Sequence record: NC_019423.1
Strand: one strand, 5' to 3'
Origin: Escherichia phage IME11
DNA: 64,000 bases
In this document: one piece after another, positions 1,710 to 57,957 of the stretch
Position numbering within the stretch: position 1 is the stretch's first letter
Layout of the letters: each line of letters opens with the position of its first letter
Notes under the pieces: model-generated
What the model was told of the DNA's origin: nothing
Seen by the model: only the letters and a program-made list of their open reading frames with translations
Databases searched by the model: none
Program-made: the position numbers and the translations under genes

Positions 1710-4352
1710 ATGGGTTTATTCAGTGGGAAGACCAAAGTATACGTAGCATCCTCTGTCTATAACATGGCAGGGGATATACATAAACGTCCAAACTATATGA
1801 AGACTGTAGTCATTGGTAATATTATTTCCAATACAGGATTCACTATGGCAGATACTATTTCTGATAGTTATCTGAATGGACCGGGTATTCGTATGCGACT
1901 GTTCTCTAGCTGGAGTAAGAACCACTATGATTCAGAAGTTGGTATGGCAGGTTCTTCATTAGGTGTACTGGCTAAGATTGACCCTACTGTTATAGAGGGT
2001 CAAATTACACCTCCTGCTGGAGAGTCTGTCTATGTTCAGGCAGCAGAGATAGGCTTTGCTGACTTTGAGCAATGGTGTGACCAGTATCTTTATGAGAATG
2101 CCCCAAGTCGAATCATGGAACGATTCGACATAGACATTGCTGAAGATACCAATGAAATTACTATGACCTCCTTAGATGGAGGCTCTACTATTACATTCAC
2201 ACCTACTAACTTTGAACCAGGTGCTTTGTATCTCTATGCTGACTACACATTCTATAAGTCACCTACTACTAATCCACCGGTAGAAGGTCCGACTACTGTC
2301 TATGATGATGAGGATGACTTACCCTCCACTTTATTATGGACTACCGTCTCCAGTGATACGACTGCTAATACAACTAACCTTACCAAGACTATACAGACTC
2401 ATTCTGTATACTCTGATGGCAGACCGGATGAAGACAGCACTGTCACAGAACCAAGTGTGGATAACTGGAACTCTTACGTTAAGGTTTATCGCAGAGGATT
2501 CACTGAGAAACCTGATGATGTGACTGTAGTTGTATCTGACAGAGTAATGACTCATACAAAGTTTGGTGAGATTCAATCCAGTACTGCTGTAACTACCAAT
2601 GTAGTTGATATAGGTGGTGGTGTTACTCGCACTGACACAATTACTACAACTACAGAGTCACTGGTTCGCAAGTATTCATCACAGACTACTCGTACTGATA
2701 CAGAAATGGCTGCTGCTGGTACACCTAAGATGCTTATCTATAAACAGAACTCTGGTAACGTTGCACTAGACTCACTGTTTGAAACTGAGGCTACTGATAA
2801 CCGGTTCTACCCATTCATCCCAATAAGGAACGATAAACAATGGGTAGAGAATGACCCAATCTACCCTCACTGCAAGAAGGCTCTTTATAAAGCTACCGGA
2901 GGAAAACTCAATAAAGTAACAGCAGAGCTTAAGAAGAATGATGACATTGGAGATATTCAATACATCTATGGCTCATTCGGTGTATCTCTTAATACACCAG
3001 AGGATACTGCTAAGGAATACATCTACCGTTTCTTTCAGATGGCTACTGAAGCATTCCCACCCGACCCAACTTATCCTACTTTGGAGGCAGTCATTGCAGG
3101 TTATCAGGCAGCTAATGATGCAGTTGATGACTATGTAGCATGGTGGAACAGGCAGGAAGGCCAGATTGTTGGAGCACCCCCACCGCTACCAGAATACCCG
3201 GTCATACCTAAGCGGGAGTTTAGGGTGCACAGTAATAAGCAGTACAAGTATGACATGACTATTGGCTGGAACTACGTATCTGAAACTACCCACTCAGGAC
3301 AAGCATGGGCTGGTGCTAAACAGGGACAACTACGAGCCAGGTATGCAGGAGATATAACTCTTACTCGCAAGAACATACGTACAGGTGATAGCAAAAAACT
3401 AGAGATTACCCCCACGTTTTACTCTATGCAGGAGTATGAATTACTTTGGCAGGATAGTAATAACTCTTACCGTAAACTTAGAGTACTGGGCCTACACCAT
3501 AATAACAGGGTGTATAAAAATAAATCAGTAAACATTGATGTTGCTGAGGCAATGAGTGACGCAGAAGAGAGTGGATTCATTATTCCACTACATACCAACA
3601 TCTACCGTTCCATGTCACTGGTTCGTAGCACTCAGTTATCTACTGCCTGTTCTTACTTAGTAATGAACTCATATAAAAAGGTTAAGAAAAAGTGGTATCA
3701 GTCTTCTGCCTTTAAGATTGTAGTTGTAGTGGTTGCTGTGGTTGTGTCTGTATTTACAGCTGGTGCTGGTGGTGTAGGTATACTTGGGGCATATGGTGCA
3801 GTTGGTGCATCACTAGGTTTTGTTGGATTAGCTGCTGTAATAGTTGGTGCTGTAGCAAATGCCATTGCTGGAATGATTCTGGTATCCCTTATCACAAAAG
3901 TATCCACTTCACTGTTTGGGGATAAACTAGGCTTTATCGTTGCTGCTATTGCTTCAATGGTAGCTACGAACGTTGGTACTGCTTTGTCTACTGGTACATC
4001 ATTATCTACCTTAGCAGGTGAAATGATGAATGCCCAAAACATCATGCAGCTTACCAGCTCAGTAGGTAATGGTATTAGTCAGTATATTAATGCATCCACG
4101 GCTGCTACTATTCAGAAAGCAGAGAGTGTAATGCAGCAGTACAATACTGATATGATGGCAATTAATAAGCAGTACGAAGAAATGTTTGGTACTGCTGGAC
4201 AGGGTGTAATTGACCCTATGCAATTCGTGTCAATGGAGTCGATGGAATCTTTCTTATCACGTACTCTTATGACTGGTTCGGATATAGCTGACTTGTCTTT
4301 AAACATGATTGGCAGCTACTCTGACATGACCCTTAATACTGACCTTGCTTAA
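1710..4352 (+). CDS. putative virion internal/structural protein with C-terminal Gly/Ala-rich hydrophobic segment
   Basis: 880-aa ORF; Thr/Ser-rich middle; long hydrophobic Gly/Ala/Val stretch (VVVVVAVVVSVFTAGAGGVGILGAYGAVGA...) near the C-terminus; three genes upstream of vRNAP. Confidence 0.6.
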   Translation: MGLFSGKTKVYVASSVYNMAGDIHKRPNYMKTVVIGNIISNTGFTMADTISDSYLNGPGIRMRLFSSWSKNHYDSEVGMAGSSLGVLAKIDPTVIEGQITPPAGESVYVQAAEIGFADFEQWCDQYLYENAPSRIMERFDIDIAEDTNEITMTSLDGGSTITFTPTNFEPGALYLYADYTFYKSPTTNPPVEGPTTVYDDEDDLPSTLLWTTVSSDTTANTTNLTKTIQTHSVYSDGRPDEDSTVTEPSVDNWNSYVKVYRRGFTEKPDDVTVVVSDRVMTHTKFGEIQSSTAVTTNVVDIGGGVTRTDTITTTTESLVRKYSSQTTRTDTEMAAAGTPKMLIYKQNSGNVALDSLFETEATDNRFYPFIPIRNDKQWVENDPIYPHCKKALYKATGGKLNKVTAELKKNDDIGDIQYIYGSFGVSLNTPEDTAKEYIYRFFQMATEAFPPDPTYPTLEAVIAGYQAANDAVDDYVAWWNRQEGQIVGAPPPLPEYPVIPKREFRVHSNKQYKYDMTIGWNYVSETTHSGQAWAGAKQGQLRARYAGDITLTRKNIRTGDSKKLEITPTFYSMQEYELLWQDSNNSYRKLRVLGLHHNNRVYKNKSVNIDVAEAMSDAEESGFIIPLHTNIYRSMSLVRSTQLSTACSYLVMNSYKKVKKKWYQSSAFKIVVVVVAVVVSVFTAGAGGVGILGAYGAVGASLGFVGLAAVIVGAVANAIAGMILVSLITKVSTSLFGDKLGFIVAAIASMVATNVGTALSTGTSLSTLAGEMMNAQNIMQLTSSVGNGISQYINASTAATIQKAESVMQQYNTDMMAINKQYEEMFGTAGQGVIDPMQFVSMESMESFLSRTLMTGSDIADLSLNMIGSYSDMTLNTDLA

Positions 4353-49545: not shown

Positions 49546-49564
49546 CAAAAGCTGCGGAGCAGCT
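49546..49564 (-). promoter_or_regulatory. N4-type vRNAP hairpin promoter (template on plus strand, transcription leftward)
   Basis: CCAAAA-AGCTGC-GGA-GCAGCT: 6-bp stem, GGA loop; CC at 49545-49546 sits 11 nt 5' of the loop-centre G (template +1/+2, giving a GG-initiated RNA). Confidence 0.6.
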
Positions 49565-52512: not shown

Positions 52513-52698
52513 TTACTCCTTATGGAGTTTACGGATTTGTTTACGGGTAGGTTTAGTTACAAAGAAGTGGTCATAGCAACGACCATTTTCATCTTTTACA
52601 GATACCTGCCAACGAGCATTCAATGTCATCTTACTGCCCCAAGGCTGTAATGTAACAATCAACTTCTGTGAGTTATAACGGTTACATACTGTACGCAT
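52513..52698 (-). CDS. small basic protein, paralog of 53352-53558
   Basis: 61 aa ending KPTRKQIRKLHKE; shares N-terminal MR and C-terminal KPT(K/R)KQIRKL with its paralog. Confidence 0.45.
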   Translation of the reverse strand: MRTVCNRYNSQKLIVTLQPWGSKMTLNARWQVSVKDENGRCYDHFFVTKPTRKQIRKLHKE

Positions 52699-53328: not shown

Positions 53329-53347
53329 CATAAGACGCGGAGCGTCT
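53329..53347 (-). promoter_or_regulatory. N4-type vRNAP hairpin promoter
   Basis: CATCCATA-AGACGC-GGA-GCGTCT; CC at 53328-53329 is 11 nt 5' of the loop-centre G. Confidence 0.6.
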
Positions 53348-53351
53348 AGTT

Positions 53352-53558
53352 TTAGATTGCTTCTTTACGAAACTCTCTACGCAATTTACGGATTTGTTTC
53401 TTGGTAGGCTTAGCAGGGAATGAATGACAAGCAACATAGTGCTGTCTCTCTGTTACGTTAGTAATCTCTGAGAACCAAAGATTCCACTGAGCATCCATCT
53501 TACCTAACAATCCACCATTGTTACTCTTGTTTGCAAACAGGGAAGTTTGAATACGCAT
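53352..53558 (-). CDS. small basic protein, paralog of 52513-52698
   Basis: 68 aa with C-terminal KPTKKQIRKLRREFRK; flanked by two hairpin promoters. Confidence 0.45.
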   Translation of the reverse strand: MRIQTSLFANKSNNGGLLGKMDAQWNLWFSEITNVTERQHYVACHSFPAKPTKKQIRKLRREFRKEAI

Positions 53559-53815: not shown

Positions 53816-53998
53816 TTATTCCTTAGTTAGTTCAACTATAAAGTTATCTAGTTTCTGCCTAGCTATTTCACACGATTCTACTATTGATTCATAGTCATCA
53901 GGGTCTGCTGAACCAGCCCAACTATCTGCAATTGCTGATTCTGCGTAGTTACTAATTAGCTTTTTAAGCTTCTCTGCTTGCTTAGGATTAAGGGACAT
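53816..53998 (-). CDS. hypothetical small protein
   Basis: 60-aa ORF. Confidence 0.4.
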   Translation of the reverse strand: MSLNPKQAEKLKKLISNYAESAIADSWAGSADPDDYESIVESCEIARQKLDNFIVELTKE

Positions 53999-54041
53999 TT
54001 TACTTCTCCTAAAGTAGATAGTTATCTACTTTTGACTATCT

Positions 54042-54068
54042 ATCTAATGTTCAAAACAGGAGACTCCG
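54042..54068 (-). terminator. putative terminator hairpin
   Basis: GGAGACTC-cgaa-GAGTCTCC downstream of 54087-54410. Confidence 0.4.
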
Positions 54069-54086
54069 AAGAGTCTCCTAGGTGAC

Positions 54087-54410
54087 TTAGTCTTTAGTCA
54101 GGATGTCAATTACTTTAGAATATTCTGCGTTATAGATACGAGCGTTCTCTGAATCTTTGCAGAAATCTTCGATACTTTTCTTACGCAGAGTCTCGTTCCT
54201 AGCTGTTTCCTCTGCCAGTTTATTAACAAAGGTATGCATTTCTAATTTAGTACGAATGGCTTGTTTCTCTGCCATAGTACTTACATATGAATTAAGCATA
54301 CCTACTGCTTTAGTTGCTGTACCAAATGTATCTGCAACAGTAGTAGCAGCTGAGTTAACAGTACCAAGTAAAGTTCCTGCGGTCATACGTACAGTAGCGG
54401 TAGTAGTCAT
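54087..54410 (-). CDS. hypothetical early protein
   Basis: 107-aa ORF, first gene downstream of hairpin promoter 54449-54467. Confidence 0.45.
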   Translation of the reverse strand: MTTTATVRMTAGTLLGTVNSAATTVADTFGTATKAVGMLNSYVSTMAEKQAIRTKLEMHTFVNKLAEETARNETLRKKSIEDFCKDSENARIYNAEYSKVIDILTKD

Positions 54411-54448
54411 GATGATAGCTCCAATAGTTGATGATAGGACGACATGTC

Positions 54449-54467
54449 CATAACATGCGGAGCATGT
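54449..54467 (-). promoter_or_regulatory. N4-type vRNAP hairpin promoter (the one furthest to the right in this window)
   Basis: GTCCATA-ACATGC-GGA-GCATGT; CC at 54448-54449 is 11 nt 5' of the loop-centre G. Confidence 0.6.
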
Positions 54468-54643
54468 GTAACGTGTAAGGTGGGGTAGGGTAGTGGCTAC
54501 ACCGTCAACATACCGGGGGGGCTAGTTGAGTGTAAGGGTGTAGCCCCAGCCACACCACTGTAGCCATACATAGCTATCATCATTTTGGTATGCAAAAATA
54601 CCATAGCTATCCTACTTATAAGCAGTTAAATAGGAGGAAGCTT

Positions 54644-54964
54644 TCAGGTGATTATGCGTGCTATACCAGGGTAATAGTCCGGATGGTTAGGATTACCACT
54701 ACTATTCCTTACGGTAGCATCTTTGATAAATACATGGGCATAATCACCGTATGGTATGAATACTGACTCACCATTTTGCAGGATAACTATCTCTGCATTA
54801 CTGTTAGTAAGTAGCTTATGTCCCTGTGCAAAGTCTGCTAACTCTCCTGGCTCCATTATTAGTGTAGAAGTTCCATGGGTCATAATGTGGATGATTGCTT
54901 TTTCTGGTACAGAGGAATAATGCAGTAAGTCCGTACCTTTCATTCCTAATAGTTTAACGTTCAT
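54644..54964 (-). CDS. small protein of tandem paralog family (member F)
   Basis: 106 aa; core EPGELADFAQGHKLLTNSNAEIVILQNGESVFIP shared with 55265-55615 and others. Confidence 0.5.
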   Translation of the reverse strand: MNVKLLGMKGTDLLHYSSVPEKAIIHIMTHGTSTLIMEPGELADFAQGHKLLTNSNAEIVILQNGESVFIPYGDYAHVFIKDATVRNSSGNPNHPDYYPGIARIIT

Positions 54965-55268
54965 GCTTCAGTACCTGTTTAAGAAGACTATCCATGTAAT
55001 AGCAGTATGCCTCGGAGTTATCATCGTTGATTGGTAATCCAATGAACCCGAAGGTGTATATACAGAAGTGATTAAGTTCATGAACCAAGGTGATAGGGTC
55101 ACTATCTTGTGCATAGATAAGTACCGAACCATCAGATAGCAGTGTAGTTACACCTTTGCTTTGTTCCTCTGGTTCACAGCCCTTAGCTTTCTTGTACTTC
55201 TTAATGAAGGTATCCCAGTCGAATACTACCTCTAACTGTACCGGATAGGGGGATGTGTTTAGTTTCAT
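54954..55268 (-). CDS. small HExxH-motif protein (putative mini metallopeptidase-like)
   Basis: 104 aa; LVHELNHFCIY contains HExxH; embedded in the paralog array. Confidence 0.45.
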   Translation of the reverse strand: MKLNTSPYPVQLEVVFDWDTFIKKYKKAKGCEPEEQSKGVTTLLSDGSVLIYAQDSDPITLVHELNHFCIYTFGFIGLPINDDNSEAYCYYMDSLLKQVLKHER

Positions 55269-55615
55269 AGAGATACCTTTGGATAAATGGTGCGTACTCT
55301 TTTAAAATCTTTATTAGGTCTACCATCTATAGTAAGCCCAACAAACCCTTCTTCTATCCTTGGTTCAAAGAACAAGAATGCAGATTCACCAGCAGGTATC
55401 TTTATGGATTCCCCTGGATTAAGGATGGTTAAATTAGCAGGGCTGTTGAGTAGAAGGATGGAACCACGAGTACTATCTGCTAACTCACCGGGTAACATAA
55501 GCATATGACAGTCTTGCGGGAGTAACCAATCAATAGCTTTAGTGACATTCTCAGAGTAAACGGATACCTCATCTGTATACTGGTGAAGGAATAATACTCT
55601 ATTCATAAGGTACAC
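55265..55615 (-). CDS. small protein of tandem paralog family (member E)
   Basis: 116 aa; core LPGELADSTRGSILLLNSPANLTILNPGESIKIP. Confidence 0.5.
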   Translation of the reverse strand: MYLMNRVLFLHQYTDEVSVYSENVTKAIDWLLPQDCHMLMLPGELADSTRGSILLLNSPANLTILNPGESIKIPAGESAFLFFEPRIEEGFVGLTIDGRPNKDFKRVRTIYPKVSL

Positions 55616-55923
55616 TCGTCGCTAGATAAATATGAGGTAGAAGGATAGAGGGTAATAAGTCTACCTGTTAGGGTAGTTACTACCATAGGTTCACAGGAGG
55701 AGTAGATGTATACAACTACATTCTCTGGAACTTCAATGGAAGTATCTATTTTAATAAAGGTAATAGGTACACCCAACATGAGGCAGGTTCCGATGAACTC
55801 ATCCGCTTTTTCACATTGTTCGTAGTACATGGTCATAGGTGTGCTTATCCTCAACCAATGGGATTTACCTACCCCCAGATTAAGGGGACTGGTACTACGA
55901 TAACTCAAACCATAGAAGTGCAT
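55603..55923 (-). CDS. small protein, possible divergent member of the paralog family (D)
   Basis: 106 aa; weaker similarity (ADEFIGTCLMLGVPITFIKIDTSIEVP). Confidence 0.4.
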   Translation of the reverse strand: MHFYGLSYRSTSPLNLGVGKSHWLRISTPMTMYYEQCEKADEFIGTCLMLGVPITFIKIDTSIEVPENVVVYIYSSCEPMVVTTLTGRLITLYPSTSYLSSDECTL

Positions 55924-55926
55924 AAC

Positions 55927-56304
55927 TTACTTCCTTACATAGTAGTAACGATAGTCATCATTATCATGACGACTATCCCACTGGTAGTCATGAGATATCA
56001 TCATGAAAGGTAGAGCATCATATGCACAACTAACGGTGTATACTGAGGGAGGAATGATACATACAACCTTACGGTCACAACCAGCTAAGAATAGCTGACC
56101 CCTTACTTCATGATAATCTTCTAAAGTAGGAACCAGTATTACTCGTTGGGGACTGCTGTTCATCACTTCTTCTAAAGTGAAGTCAGTTGTAAACAATAGT
56201 TCCCCTTTAATAAAACTGGGGGCGGTCATTATGAATTTCATGATTGATTCTCCTTCCTTTAGGAATAGGTCTGAAGTAAATGGAAAGTGTTTTATTAAAG
56301 ACAT
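55927..56304 (-). CDS. small protein of tandem paralog family (member C)
   Basis: 125 aa; core VPTLEDYHEVRGQLFLAGCDRKVVCIIPPSVYTV; overlaps member B by 98 nt. Confidence 0.45.
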   Translation of the reverse strand: MSLIKHFPFTSDLFLKEGESIMKFIMTAPSFIKGELLFTTDFTLEEVMNSSPQRVILVPTLEDYHEVRGQLFLAGCDRKVVCIIPPSVYTVSCAYDALPFMMISHDYQWDSRHDNDDYRYYYVRK

Positions 56305-56605
56305 TATGGTCAGCTATCAATTCCCAACCAGGTATCTTATAGAAACGTACACCGGGGAAGATCATACTAAAGTCATTGTAAAACGAAAGATCATACACCT
56401 TTGGTTCAGTAAGTATCTTAGTATTGAGTTGCAGATTGGATAGGAAAAGAGAACCAATAACTTCATGGGACTCTTCGCAGTCAGGTAAGAATACCGTTTG
56501 CCACGGGGTAATGAACTTACTTACTACTTCTGGTTCCCCTAGTAGATAGGGTTCCTGCTTATGAAGTACTCCAGTAATATCAATATCAAAAGCGTAGATG
56601 CTCAT
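56207..56605 (-). CDS. small protein of tandem paralog family (member B)
   Basis: 132 aa; core LPDCEESHEVIGSLFLSNLQLNTKILTEPKVYDL. Confidence 0.45.
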   Translation of the reverse strand: MSIYAFDIDITGVLHKQEPYLLGEPEVVSKFITPWQTVFLPDCEESHEVIGSLFLSNLQLNTKILTEPKVYDLSFYNDFSMIFPGVRFYKIPGWELIADHNVFNKTLSIYFRPIPKGRRINHEIHNDRPQFY

Positions 56606-56620
56606 AGTTGCATACCTCCT

Positions 56621-56657
56621 GAAAAAGAAATGGGGTAGAGCCTCTCGACTCTACCCC
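56621..56657 (-). terminator. putative rho-independent terminator
   Basis: 9-bp stem GGGGTAGAG/CTCTACCCC with 8-nt loop, preceded on plus by GAAAAAGAAA (T-run on minus). Confidence 0.45.
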
Positions 56658-56805
56658 TTACCGTTTTCTATCACGGGTCAGTTCATCACCCTAGATACAT
56701 GTGTATCGTTAGCCTACTAGGTAGGAAAGGAGCCGGGTAACCCTGACTGTAGAAGTTATTAACTCTTTACGAGTACCGCCACTGTCTACTAGGCGGTATG
56801 ACTAA

Positions 56806-57096
56806 TCACATCGTCACCGTCATCCGAACGCTGTCTTTGCTTCGTTTGATGGAGACACTATGAGGTAATTTTGTGAAGAACACAAGAGCTGAAAAGCGTT
56901 TTTCTAAAGAGTAAGTTTCTCTTGGTTCTAGGATTTTAATGCCAGGACGATTCTCTAACAGCATCATCCCAGCTAATTCATGATAGGTGTCTTCATCATG
57001 CGTAATGATAATATCACCTGAAAGGAAGCCAGTCTTAGTGTGGTCTAGCTCCTTGTATTCATCTTTAGAGTCCTGGACTCTCATATAGATTCTCAA
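56806..57096 (-). CDS. small protein of tandem paralog family (member A)
   Basis: 96 aa; core YHELAGMMLLENRPGIKILEPRETYSL; first minus-strand gene next to the divergent junction with terminase. Confidence 0.5.
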   Translation of the reverse strand: MRIYMRVQDSKDEYKELDHTKTGFLSGDIIITHDEDTYHELAGMMLLENRPGIKILEPRETYSLEKRFSALVFFTKLPHSVSIKRSKDSVRMTVTM

Positions 57097-57267
57097 AGGT
57101 TACTCCTTTAGGGAATAAGGTCATCGGAACATTACATACTATTTAGTATCATGAACTTTTTCTATATCATGACTAAAGTGTAACTGTATGGTATGGTTTC
57201 TTCAAGGGGTATCTCACCCCAAGAAAAGAATCTTCGTTAATAGACATAACTTTGTAGAGAGATAAGT

Positions 57268-57957
57268 ATGAGTGAGTTAACCAGACAGCAAATTATTAAT
57301 GCACTACCTGCTAACTTCAAAAATAGTGTAAGCCAGGAATTGGTAGACACGATTAACAACATTACCCAAGACCAGCTGGTTGCTGAGGCATTCCGTGAAA
57401 ACTTCATCTCTTACTCTGGTGTAATGAAGGAGGGTAAGTTCAAGACACAGGACTACATGAATGCAGTTCAGTATGTGACTTACAAACATATGGGCTATTC
57501 CAATAAGGAAGCCTACTTCAAAACATTCCCTAACCGACAAGCAGAACTTGTAGCACGGGGAACCAGTGAGAAAGATATTAGTGCTTATGTATCTGCTTAC
57601 CACAGGGGTAAGCTAGTTAACCTCATCATGGAACAAAGTTTGGTTCCAGTGTGGATTGTGAACCAAGACAATTATCAGAAGGCAATCAATGTTCAGGTTG
57701 AACTGATGACTACAGCAGCAAGTGAGAAGGTAAGATGTGATGCAGCTAACTCTATCCTTACCCACTTAGCTAAACCAAAAGACCAGGTAACTAACATCAA
57801 TCTGGACTTGAGAGAGAACTCCGGGTTGACCGACCTCAAAGCAACACTTGCTGCATTAGCTGAACAGCAAATCAATGCAATCAATAGTGGTGTACCTACT
57901 AAAGAGATTGCTGGTTCTAAACTAGTACGTGCAGATGAGGACATTACAGATGTCTGA
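57268..57957 (+). CDS. putative terminase small subunit (by position)
   Basis: 229-aa ORF immediately upstream of and overlapping the terminase large subunit; assignment is by synteny. Confidence 0.4.
   Translation: MSELTRQQIINALPANFKNSVSQELVDTINNITQDQLVAEAFRENFISYSGVMKEGKFKTQDYMNAVQYVTYKHMGYSNKEAYFKTFPNRQAELVARGTSEKDISAYVSAYHRGKLVNLIMEQSLVPVWIVNQDNYQKAINVQVELMTTAASEKVRCDAANSILTHLAKPKDQVTNINLDLRENSGLTDLKATLAALAEQQINAINSGVPTKEIAGSKLVRADEDITDV

Follow-up and report, generated by a model that had tools for sequence, protein, structure and literature searches.

Six small genes at the right end of the Escherichia phage IME11 genome, all annotated as "hypothetical" and spread over five PHROGs, are, as judged by profile comparison, diverged copies of one superfamily, that of the N4 proteins gp70 and gp71. 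The block that they form constitutes the accessory module at the right terminus of a G7C-like N4-like phage (Gamaleyavirus), and its members are likely to be non-enzymatic binders made in the middle period of infection, a reading to which we give a probability of roughly 55%. The window, i.e., the whole stretch of 64,000 nucleotides that was analysed (NC_019423.1), is a circularly joined map, and all coordinates below refer to it. The array comprises the following genes, lettered A to G from the terminal repeat outwards:

56806..57096, minus strand: G, 96-aa member, orthologue of N4 gp70 and G7C gp70; PHROG 7213
56207..56605, minus strand: F, 132-aa member, orthologue of N4 gp71 and G7C gp71; PHROG 9160
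55927..56241, minus strand: E, 104-aa member, G7C gp71.1; PHROG 11661, matched from M22
55603..55923, minus strand: D, 106-aa member, G7C gp71.2; PHROG 12099
55265..55606/55615, minus strand: C, 113-116-aa member; PHROG 12606
54954..55268, minus strand: B, 104 aa with a HELNH motif (HExxH protein), a non-member inside the array; PHROG 1365
54644..54964, minus strand: A, 106-aa member with C as its closest paralogue; PHROG 12606

Shared descent of the array proteins

The initial annotation had proposed five, possibly six, consecutive paralogues with a common core. Links found with hhalign, together with a family HMM, set the number at six (A, C, D, E, F and G), whereas the run is not strictly consecutive: the seven genes are neighbours on the minus strand, but they are interrupted by B, for which neither method gives any link to the family. 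Pairwise BLASTP is clear only for A-C (42% identity, 46 bits) and E-F (33%, 32 bits). The alignment and HMM-HMM comparison that had been suggested as a check were run with hhalign on clade profiles made from relatives, including X and Y, two more subfamilies that are known from relatives only. The shared core proved significant, with P values of 2e-9 for E-XY, 1e-7 for XY-G, 4e-6 for AC-XY, 5e-6 for E-F, 9.5e-6 for AC-D and 1e-5 for AC-G, and all clades are joined in one register around an invariant glycine. In comparison, 30 reversed-profile decoys gave P values of 0.029 or worse, and in 48 comparisons against small, unrelated proteins encoded in the window none fell below 0.022. D, the most divergent member by sequence, is tied in by its link to AC and by one BLASTP bridge (the D orthologue of relative L009 against C, 4e-4).

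Run on every six-frame ORF of the window, the family HMM picks exactly these six (D with 2e-19) and nothing more up to E=10. It also matches N4 gp71 (3e-8), N4 gp70 (1e-4), five KP8 proteins and two JWAlpha proteins, all of them absent from its build, and gave no match in the 1,389 ORFs of the 84 unrelated viral loci in a second set. The resulting signature reads hhhP-x2-E-x-h-[HD]-E-h-x-G-x-hhL-x-N-x4-h-x-hL-x-P; the motif first described was correct up to the conserved proline, but its tail, E-x3-hP, is true of A and C only.

The family, which had not been recognised at first, is thereby placed with known N4 genes: G is the orthologue of gp70 (36% identity, tblastn E 2e-16), and F groups with gp71 in BLASTP clustering at E of 1e-6 or below. 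It is absent from Pfam and NCBIfam, in that scans of all 31 of 31 alignment members against Pfam, and of NCBIfam, returned noise only. The paralogy of gp70 and gp71 and the existence of the extra copies do not seem to have been recorded, and PHROGs keeps five families. Members are narrowly spread, with 26 clusters at 50% identity among 1.84 billion proteins, all of 84-132 aa, one divergent representative adjoining a Phage_N4_Gp1 gene. They occur, often in several copies, in N4-like phages from at least four host genera.

Structure prediction gives the same picture. The AlphaFold2 model of E (pLDDT 89.1, pTM 0.82) has an N-terminal beta-hairpin, a beta-alpha-beta core and a C-terminal beta-hairpin, and the signature with its invariant glycine is predicted to sit in the core. 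C, modelled independently, shows the same order of secondary-structure elements in a model of mediocre quality. In BFVD, Foldseek matches (probability about 1.0) are confined to N4-like phages, and the matching proteins are all small and uncharacterised; the genomes of KP8, Achromobacter phages and Pseudomonas phage Zuri each encode several.

Gene content, turnover and selection

G is a solitary gene with a 200-nt spacer downstream. Its start codon is TTG at 57096, with GGAG 5 nt before it, while the annotation of relatives begins at ATG 57084. Every one of the 57 Gamaleyavirus records contains it, as do 26 records that are more distant. A tightly packed operon then begins with F and runs to A, the final gene ahead of the terminal repeat. 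The 3' end of F overlaps E by 35 nt; the open frame of E extends to 56304, yet its homologues and PHROG 11661 begin at M22. Downstream, the likely start of C (ATG 55606) overlaps the stop of D as ATGA. Orthologues of at least 60% identity exist in 54 phage records for F and likewise in 54 for E, 45 of the latter at merely 60-80%. An orthologue of C is present in only 17 records, and one of A at 60% identity or more also in only 17. The interloper B is also carried by KP8-like phages, one Salmonella phage and Pseudomonas phage GP100.

The description of the family as expanded and diversifying is borne out. Six copies are present here as against two in N4, and copy number differs among genomes that are about 90% identical: G-F-E-D is kept in nearly all Gamaleyavirus genomes, the repeat-proximal copies (C, A and the alternative subfamilies X and Y) are gained and lost, and relative L010 retains G plus B only. 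All copies are under purifying selection, at a dN/dS of 0.14-0.28 compared with 0.02 in the adjacent packaging genes (6-12 times). No DNA-level repeats remain between paralogues beyond fragments of 17-24 nt, and the duplications are thus old. A further trace of turnover lies just past A:

54615..54632, minus strand: 18-nt sequence that would encode YLTAYK, non-coding in IME11

In other genomes this sequence forms the C-terminus of the array's last gene, which is X in L002-L004; in L007 and G7C it is D. Because it ends whichever gene is last, it marks the distal boundary of recombination.

Position on the virion DNA and likely expression

Four further features, the first with no strand assigned, bear on when these genes enter the cell and how they might be transcribed:

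54152..54553: direct terminal repeat of 402 bp, by homology to the Mimir124 repeat_region (97% identity)
54453..54467, plus strand: rightmost vRNAP-type hairpin promoter, template strand ACATGC-GGA-GCATGT, within the terminal repeat
56632..56657, minus strand: intrinsic-terminator-like hairpin and a trailing T-run that reaches about 56622, immediately ahead of the F ribosome-binding site
56744..56761, minus strand: conserved non-coding motif TAATAACTTCTACAGTCA in the G-F spacer

The repeat of Mimir124, a 95%-identical phage, was determined by PhageTerm, and its left end agrees with the G7C end verified by Sanger run-off sequencing (PMC11640937); the records of Mimir124 and 24-32N both stop at window position 54152. 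Since the terminal repeat parts the array from the early region and its hairpin promoter at the left end, the array lies at the right end of the virion DNA, and N4 gp70-72 likewise stand just ahead of the right repeat. N4 DNA is injected left end first, and finishing entry requires middle transcription (PMC4496689). The array was correctly located between the divergent terminase junction and the rightmost hairpin promoter, but what had been taken for the entry end is the last-entering end. From this position, it follows that the array cannot be a first-line arsenal that acts at entry.

The gene neighbourhood is that of N4. In IME11, the array occupies the early/middle strand between gp69/terminase and the right repeat, and N4 gp70/gp71 and G7C gp70-gp71.2 are direct homologues in this same position. 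N4 shares the orientation and the terminator-bearing spacer between its gp70-like and gp71-like genes, but has two family copies and an unrelated 42-aa gp72 where IME11 has six copies and the HExxH protein. N4, KP8 and JWAlpha have a common layout of gp69-like gene, gp70-like gene, terminator, array and terminal repeat.

Sites of the vRNAP type (CCAWAA-N4-GC-GGA-GC-N4) number exactly three in the window, the other two being at 49550-49564 and 53333-53347. All three are at or below 54467 and none falls within 54644-57300, so that no template-strand hairpin promoter of this kind (5-7 bp stem, 3-nt purine loop) is present upstream of the array, consistent with the earlier suggestion that it is outside the vRNAP regulon. 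Because such hairpins are lacking, the genes have the early/middle orientation and their DNA enters last, it appears most likely that the phage RNAPII transcribes them during the middle period. A precedent for this timing may be seen in the N4-like Pseudomonas phage LUZ7, whose right-end cluster of 29 small ORFans (gp87-gp115) lies under mid-infection transcripts (PMC9163698). The likeness consists in many small hypothetical genes at the rightmost end on the early/middle strand (PMC9163698); the LUZ7 cluster is far larger and is likened by position, with homology suggested only indirectly by the Foldseek matches in phage Zuri.

The terminator structure upstream of F is kept in N4, KP8 and JWAlpha with differing stem sequences, and the JWAlpha record labels the same place as a "putative transcriptional terminator". 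The motif TAATAACTTCTACAGTCA is kept in the same three phages despite flanking proteins that are only 25-35% identical, and is a candidate promoter or other cis element. It occurs once in the window and, for that reason, is not a general middle-promoter consensus. An IMG/VR scan for it returned mostly chance matches, with family members only on known N4-like contigs. Two other elements were set aside: GGGTGATGA, common to the N4 and G7C spacers and considered as a recurrent promoter motif, does not exceed its chance frequency, and the divergent spacer has a TTGGGG...CCCC hairpin that occurs a single time in the window. No convincing sigma-70 promoter was found upstream (6 sites versus 16.8 expected by chance, the nearest being weak), and Rfam gave only a chance miRNA match on 53900-57400. 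In the arrangement that we propose, G would form a separate transcription unit closed by the conserved terminator. The genes from F to A would make up an operon with translational coupling, expressed either through read-through or by way of a promoter located within the conserved spacer; the strong terminator directly before F counts against this arrangement.

Proposed role and competing explanations

The members are about 100 residues long, soluble and mildly acidic (pI 4.9-6.9). Conservation is limited to core hydrophobics plus one glycine, one proline, one asparagine and one acidic residue, and the family alignment holds no conserved polar cluster, metal-binding or catalytic constellation, basic patch or nucleotide-binding motif. 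As conservation is confined to core positions and a catalytic or metal constellation is lacking, non-enzymatic binders are most likely. Their variable surfaces may bind host, or possibly phage, macromolecules, and the cassette would then be an accessory set for host interaction or counter-defence. A literature search found no functional or expression data on any member, N4 gp70 and gp71 included, and nothing relevant on anti-defence work in Gamaleyavirus; nor was sequence or fold similarity found to known anti-defence or host-takeover proteins. The conservation of gp70 (G) across Schitoviridae subfamilies also speaks against our preferred reading of an accessory binder set, as it is more in keeping with a core function than with a part in an arms race.

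A bolder version, which we hold to be possible but considerably less probable, is that of an unnamed Schitoviridae-wide superfamily with a small alpha/beta fold of its own, whose right-end arrays are hypervariable, attenuator-gated inhibitors of host proteins. These could be, for example, counter-defence factors that work once the whole genome is inside; the attenuator-like leader would consist of the terminator and the cis element, both conserved, that separate the gp70-like gene from the array.

A role in replication, recombination or at the genome ends, acting on DNA ends or concatemer junctions or aiding packaging, is unlikely. It would explain the fixed place adjoining gp69/terminase and the terminal repeat, which is invariant in three Schitoviridae genera, and would fit the wide conservation of gp70 as well as a faint fold likeness to RecA-like helicase lobes; a replication-related role was also proposed for the LUZ7 cluster, from its middle timing (PMC9163698). 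However, copies are freely gained and lost among near-identical genomes, as in L010, dN/dS is about ten-fold that of the packaging genes, and the proteins are mildly acidic and lack a conserved basic patch or nucleotide-binding motif.

Still more doubtful is the view of the initial annotation, in which the array is an entry-end arsenal for host takeover or anti-defence, expressed on DNA entry and independent of vRNAP. The family is variable, expanded and fast-evolving, and both the Gamaleyavirus Bas96 and N4 are markedly resistant to restriction-modification by unexplained means (PMC11990801). A host-takeover or anti-defence role as such is plausible, but the terminal repeat, the left-first entry of N4 DNA with its need for middle transcription, and the lack of a convincing sigma-70 promoter are at odds with expression on entry. 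The T7 class I and T5 pre-early genes are variable accessory or anti-defence clusters that occupy the first-entering end and precede all others in expression. The IME11 array resembles them in its small, fast-evolving genes whose presence varies among close relatives, but it lies at the opposite, last-entering end and has no member that resembles a known inhibitor.

It is very improbable that these are enzymes or pieces of known folds. A cupin was considered on account of a PGE...IP motif and a weak Cupin_3 match, and rejected: Cupin_3 matched A only (E 0.18, 11.9 bits against a cut-off of 23.5), and the beta-alpha-beta core is predicted to contain two helices and no double-stranded beta-helix. 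A degenerate RecA-like domain of an SF1/SF2 helicase fared no better, with no Walker or DEAD motifs. Every score was under its threshold, no PDB sequence scored better than E 0.5 in a profile search, a Foldseek search of the PDB with the mediocre model of C gave no match below E 0.3, and there is no conserved His/Glu metal site. Finally, the idea that the core is a chance likeness or that the ORFs are not genes, to which the pairs lacking significant direct BLASTP similarity might lend some weight, is refuted by transitive profile links of 1e-5 to 1e-9 with clean decoys, the specificity of the family HMM, dN/dS far under 1 in every gene and the recurrence of the fold in BFVD models made independently for other subfamilies.

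N4-like phages are found widely and serve in phage therapy, and how they withstand many restriction systems is unexplained. The present analysis unites five "hypothetical" families, filed as unrelated, into one superfamily with one fold, which is the fastest-evolving portion of its neighbourhood, and corrects the map by placing the cassette at the last-entering end, thereby constraining its possible roles. As such, the unified family, with its multi-copy spread and fast evolution, lends itself, as a compact target, to deletion, pull-down and defence-panel work.

Membership of the gp70/gp71 family

The array region shares 90-96% DNA identity with Gamaleyavirus (Schitoviridae), the G7C-like N4-like coliphages, and its nearest matches are Mimir124 and 24-32N. 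Beside it is a 229-aa plus-strand gene that starts at 57268, is homologous to N4 gp69, is annotated in relatives as the small terminase subunit and is followed on the same strand by the large terminase gene.

Genes of the array
57096 to 54644, minus strand: seven small genes, G, F, E, D, C, B and A in transcription order
54954-55268, minus strand: B, 104 aa, HELNH motif, PHROG 1365, inserted in the array

G is 36% identical to N4 gp70 (E 2e-16) and is its orthologue. In the G7C record, G, F, E and D go by the names gp70, gp71, gp71.1 and gp71.2, and the likeness of the first two to N4 gp70 and gp71 is remarked on. The family that the initial annotation did not recognise is therefore already present in databases as 'hypothetical proteins', and the array is an expansion of the known, uncharacterised N4 gp70/gp71 family. 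Searches of Pfam, NCBIfam and PDB sequences found no relative of this family, and literature searches found no paper assigning it a function.

BLASTP among the seven genes gives clear pairs only for A-C (42% identity over 66 residues) and E-F (33% over 42), weak similarity for C-G, E-G and D-F, and no match of B to any of the other six. PHROGs splits the six genes other than B over five uncharacterised families, with A and C the sole pair sharing one. The array region was gathered from 11 IMG/VR contigs, located through the adjacent 229-aa gene, and N4, G7C, KP8 and JWAlpha were added later. Among these relatives, a bridging D orthologue matches C, two further subfamilies (X and Y) match G and E, and a more distant contig, L011, carries about five divergent family copies. 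Clade profiles made from the collected relatives are joined by hhalign, six clades in one register (E-XY, 2e-9; XY-G, 1e-7; AC-XY, 4e-6; E-F, 5e-6; AC-D, 1e-5; AC-G, 1e-5), against best values of 0.029 for 30 reversed-profile decoys and 0.022 for 48 comparisons with unrelated small window proteins, B included.

The family HMM picks out exactly six genes (A, C, D, E, F and G) from all six-frame window ORFs. It also matches proteins outside the model, namely N4 gp71 (3e-8) and N4 gp70 (1e-4), along with five from KP8 and two from JWAlpha, whereas ORFs from 84 unrelated viral loci gave no match. When 1.84 billion representative proteins were searched exhaustively with HMMER, only 26 clusters came back, all of 84-132 residues and all with the core. 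With these profile links, clean decoys and a selective HMM, the shared core first noticed in the sequence is borne out for six members, and the paralogous array is real and was correctly delimited; its run of family genes is interrupted by B, an unrelated insert. B is variably present in Gamaleyavirus, occurs also in KP8-like phages, a Salmonella phage and Pseudomonas phage GP100, and has no relative that could be found in Pfam or PDB; B may represent a minimal metallopeptidase-like protein.

Position at the right genome end

The N4-type early-promoter form, CCAWAA-N4-GC-GGA-GC-N4 on the template strand, occurs exactly three times in the window, with a common extended consensus in which a 6-bp stem carries a GGA loop and the 5' flank is conserved.

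vRNAP-type hairpin promoters
49550-49564, plus strand
53333-53347, plus strand
54453-54467, plus strand

The array and the DNA upstream of it contain none of the three, as the initial annotation had it. Two early-region small-gene paralogues (53352-53558 and 52513-52698, minus strand) match Pfam DUF7279 (E 9e-21 and 8e-10) and have a KPT+KQIRKL C-terminal motif in common.

The terminal repeat annotated in Mimir124 maps to window 54152-54553 (97% identity); the Mimir124 ends derive from PhageTerm, and the left one matches the Sanger-verified G7C end (PMC11640937). The Mimir124 and 24-32N records both terminate at 54152, which, together with the repeat alignment, identifies the window as a circularly joined map. 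On virion DNA, the final coding stretch ahead of the right repeat is the array, a location it has in common with N4 gp70-72 and with the corresponding genes of KP8 and JWAlpha. Since entry of N4 DNA starts from the left end, which carries the hairpin promoters (PMC4496689), the array is not at the 'entry end', where it had been placed.

Gene H (PHROG 5020; 54087-54410, minus strand) starts inside the repeat, so that a truncated H must also stand at the virion right end, along with the first hairpin promoter in a further copy; such a truncated copy is annotated in the Mimir124 and JWAlpha records. A 20-nt inverted repeat (54484-54503/54537-54556; 75% complementary, 33 nt apart) occupies the extreme left edge of the terminal repeat, beside the physical genome end.

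Probable expression and conserved spacers

From F to A the genes follow closely on one another, with overlaps of the ATGA type or longer, which points to a single operon with coupled translation. G is set apart from them by a 200-nt spacer, and the layout of this spacer (hairpin, motif, terminator-like hairpin) is kept in N4, KP8 and JWAlpha.

Conserved spacer elements
57206-57222, minus strand: hairpin TTCTTTTCTT-GGGGTgagatACCCC-TTG in the divergent gp69-like/G spacer; also in N4 (GGGGTtagcACCCC), KP8 and L011
56774-56798, minus strand: hairpin CCGCC-N11-GGCGG directly 3' of the G stop
56744-56761, minus strand: ~20-nt motif TTAATAAC-N2-3-CTWCAG-YYA in the gp70-like/gp71-like spacer; also in N4 (L013, ~3404-3425), KP8 (L015) and JWAlpha (L016)
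56632-56657, minus strand: intrinsic-terminator-like hairpin with T-run, directly before the F ribosome-binding site

Across E. coli, Klebsiella and Achromobacter phages, the spacer motif outconserves the flanking proteins, which are only 25-35% identical. Its layout is reminiscent of a T7-type promoter; as it occurs once in the window, it cannot be called a general middle promoter. In both G-F spacer hairpins the stem sequence differs by genus and pairing is kept; the stems of the terminator-like hairpin covary, and its A-rich and T-rich flanks make it look bidirectional. The 57206-57222 hairpin, unique in the window, does not form a terminator on either strand. In the N4-like phage LUZ7, mid-infection transcripts cover the rightmost cluster of small ORFans (PMC9163698). 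By analogy with this precedent, and given the early/middle-gene orientation without a vRNAP hairpin, RNAPII is most likely the polymerase for the array.

Copy turnover, predicted fold and possible function

At a threshold of at least 60% identity, the 57 Gamaleyavirus records in the phage collection hold orthologues of G in 57, F in 54, E in 54, D in 46 (plus 11 more divergent), C in 17 and A in 17. The position proximal to the terminal repeat is held in other genomes by X, Y or nothing, and the L010 contig retains only G and B.

Distal edge of the array
54615-54632, minus strand: 18-nt sequence that would encode YLTAYK, non-coding in the window

In some other genomes this 18-mer supplies the C-terminus of the last array gene (X in contigs L002-L004, D in L007 and G7C); P0128 and P0140 have similar tails, and N4 gp71 ends in a similar PAYK. 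The sequence marks a fixed distal recombination boundary, ~60 nt from the terminal repeat. DNA-level repeats no longer remain between family copies, indicating that the duplications are old. Across ten genomes, dN/dS for G, F, E, D and C is 0.14-0.28 versus 0.02 for the 229-aa gene and terminase, and dS is also raised (0.41-0.77 versus ~0.3). The array genes are real genes under selection, with a rate of evolution an order of magnitude above that of the adjacent genes and probably with allele exchange.

AlphaFold2 modelled E from a 31-sequence alignment with pLDDT 89 and pTM 0.82. In this model, an N-terminal beta-hairpin and short helix precede a beta-alpha-beta unit that bears the signature (strand hhhh-P, helix with the invariant Gly mid-helix, strand hxhL-x-P), after which come more strands that end in a C-terminal hairpin; for C, a shallower run reproduced the element order with a confident core. 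A Foldseek search of predicted viral structures gave matches at probability ~1.0 exclusively to small, uncharacterised N4-like phage proteins, among them those of the G7C-like subfamilies X, Y and G, the OLB145 orthologue of gp71, four or five from Klebsiella phage KP8, and several each from Achromobacter JW/Axy phages and Pseudomonas phage Zuri. The predicted fold thus looks specific to Schitoviridae and is frequently multi-copy per genome. Conserved columns are confined to core hydrophobics and Gly (97%), Glu (77%), Pro (71%) and Asn (68%), pI is 4.9-6.9, and no cysteine or histidine pattern was found in the family columns; the conserved positions look like a scaffold rather than an active site.

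The main alternative, that the proteins act at genome ends, in replication or in packaging, is suggested by the invariant position beside terminase and repeat and by how widely gp70 is conserved; the dispensable and divergent nature of the other copies speaks against it. A small scaffold with variable surfaces, copy gain and loss, rapid evolution and occurrence in a single phage family fit non-enzymatic binders, which may serve in host interaction or counter-defence and, from the position of the array, would act after genome entry.
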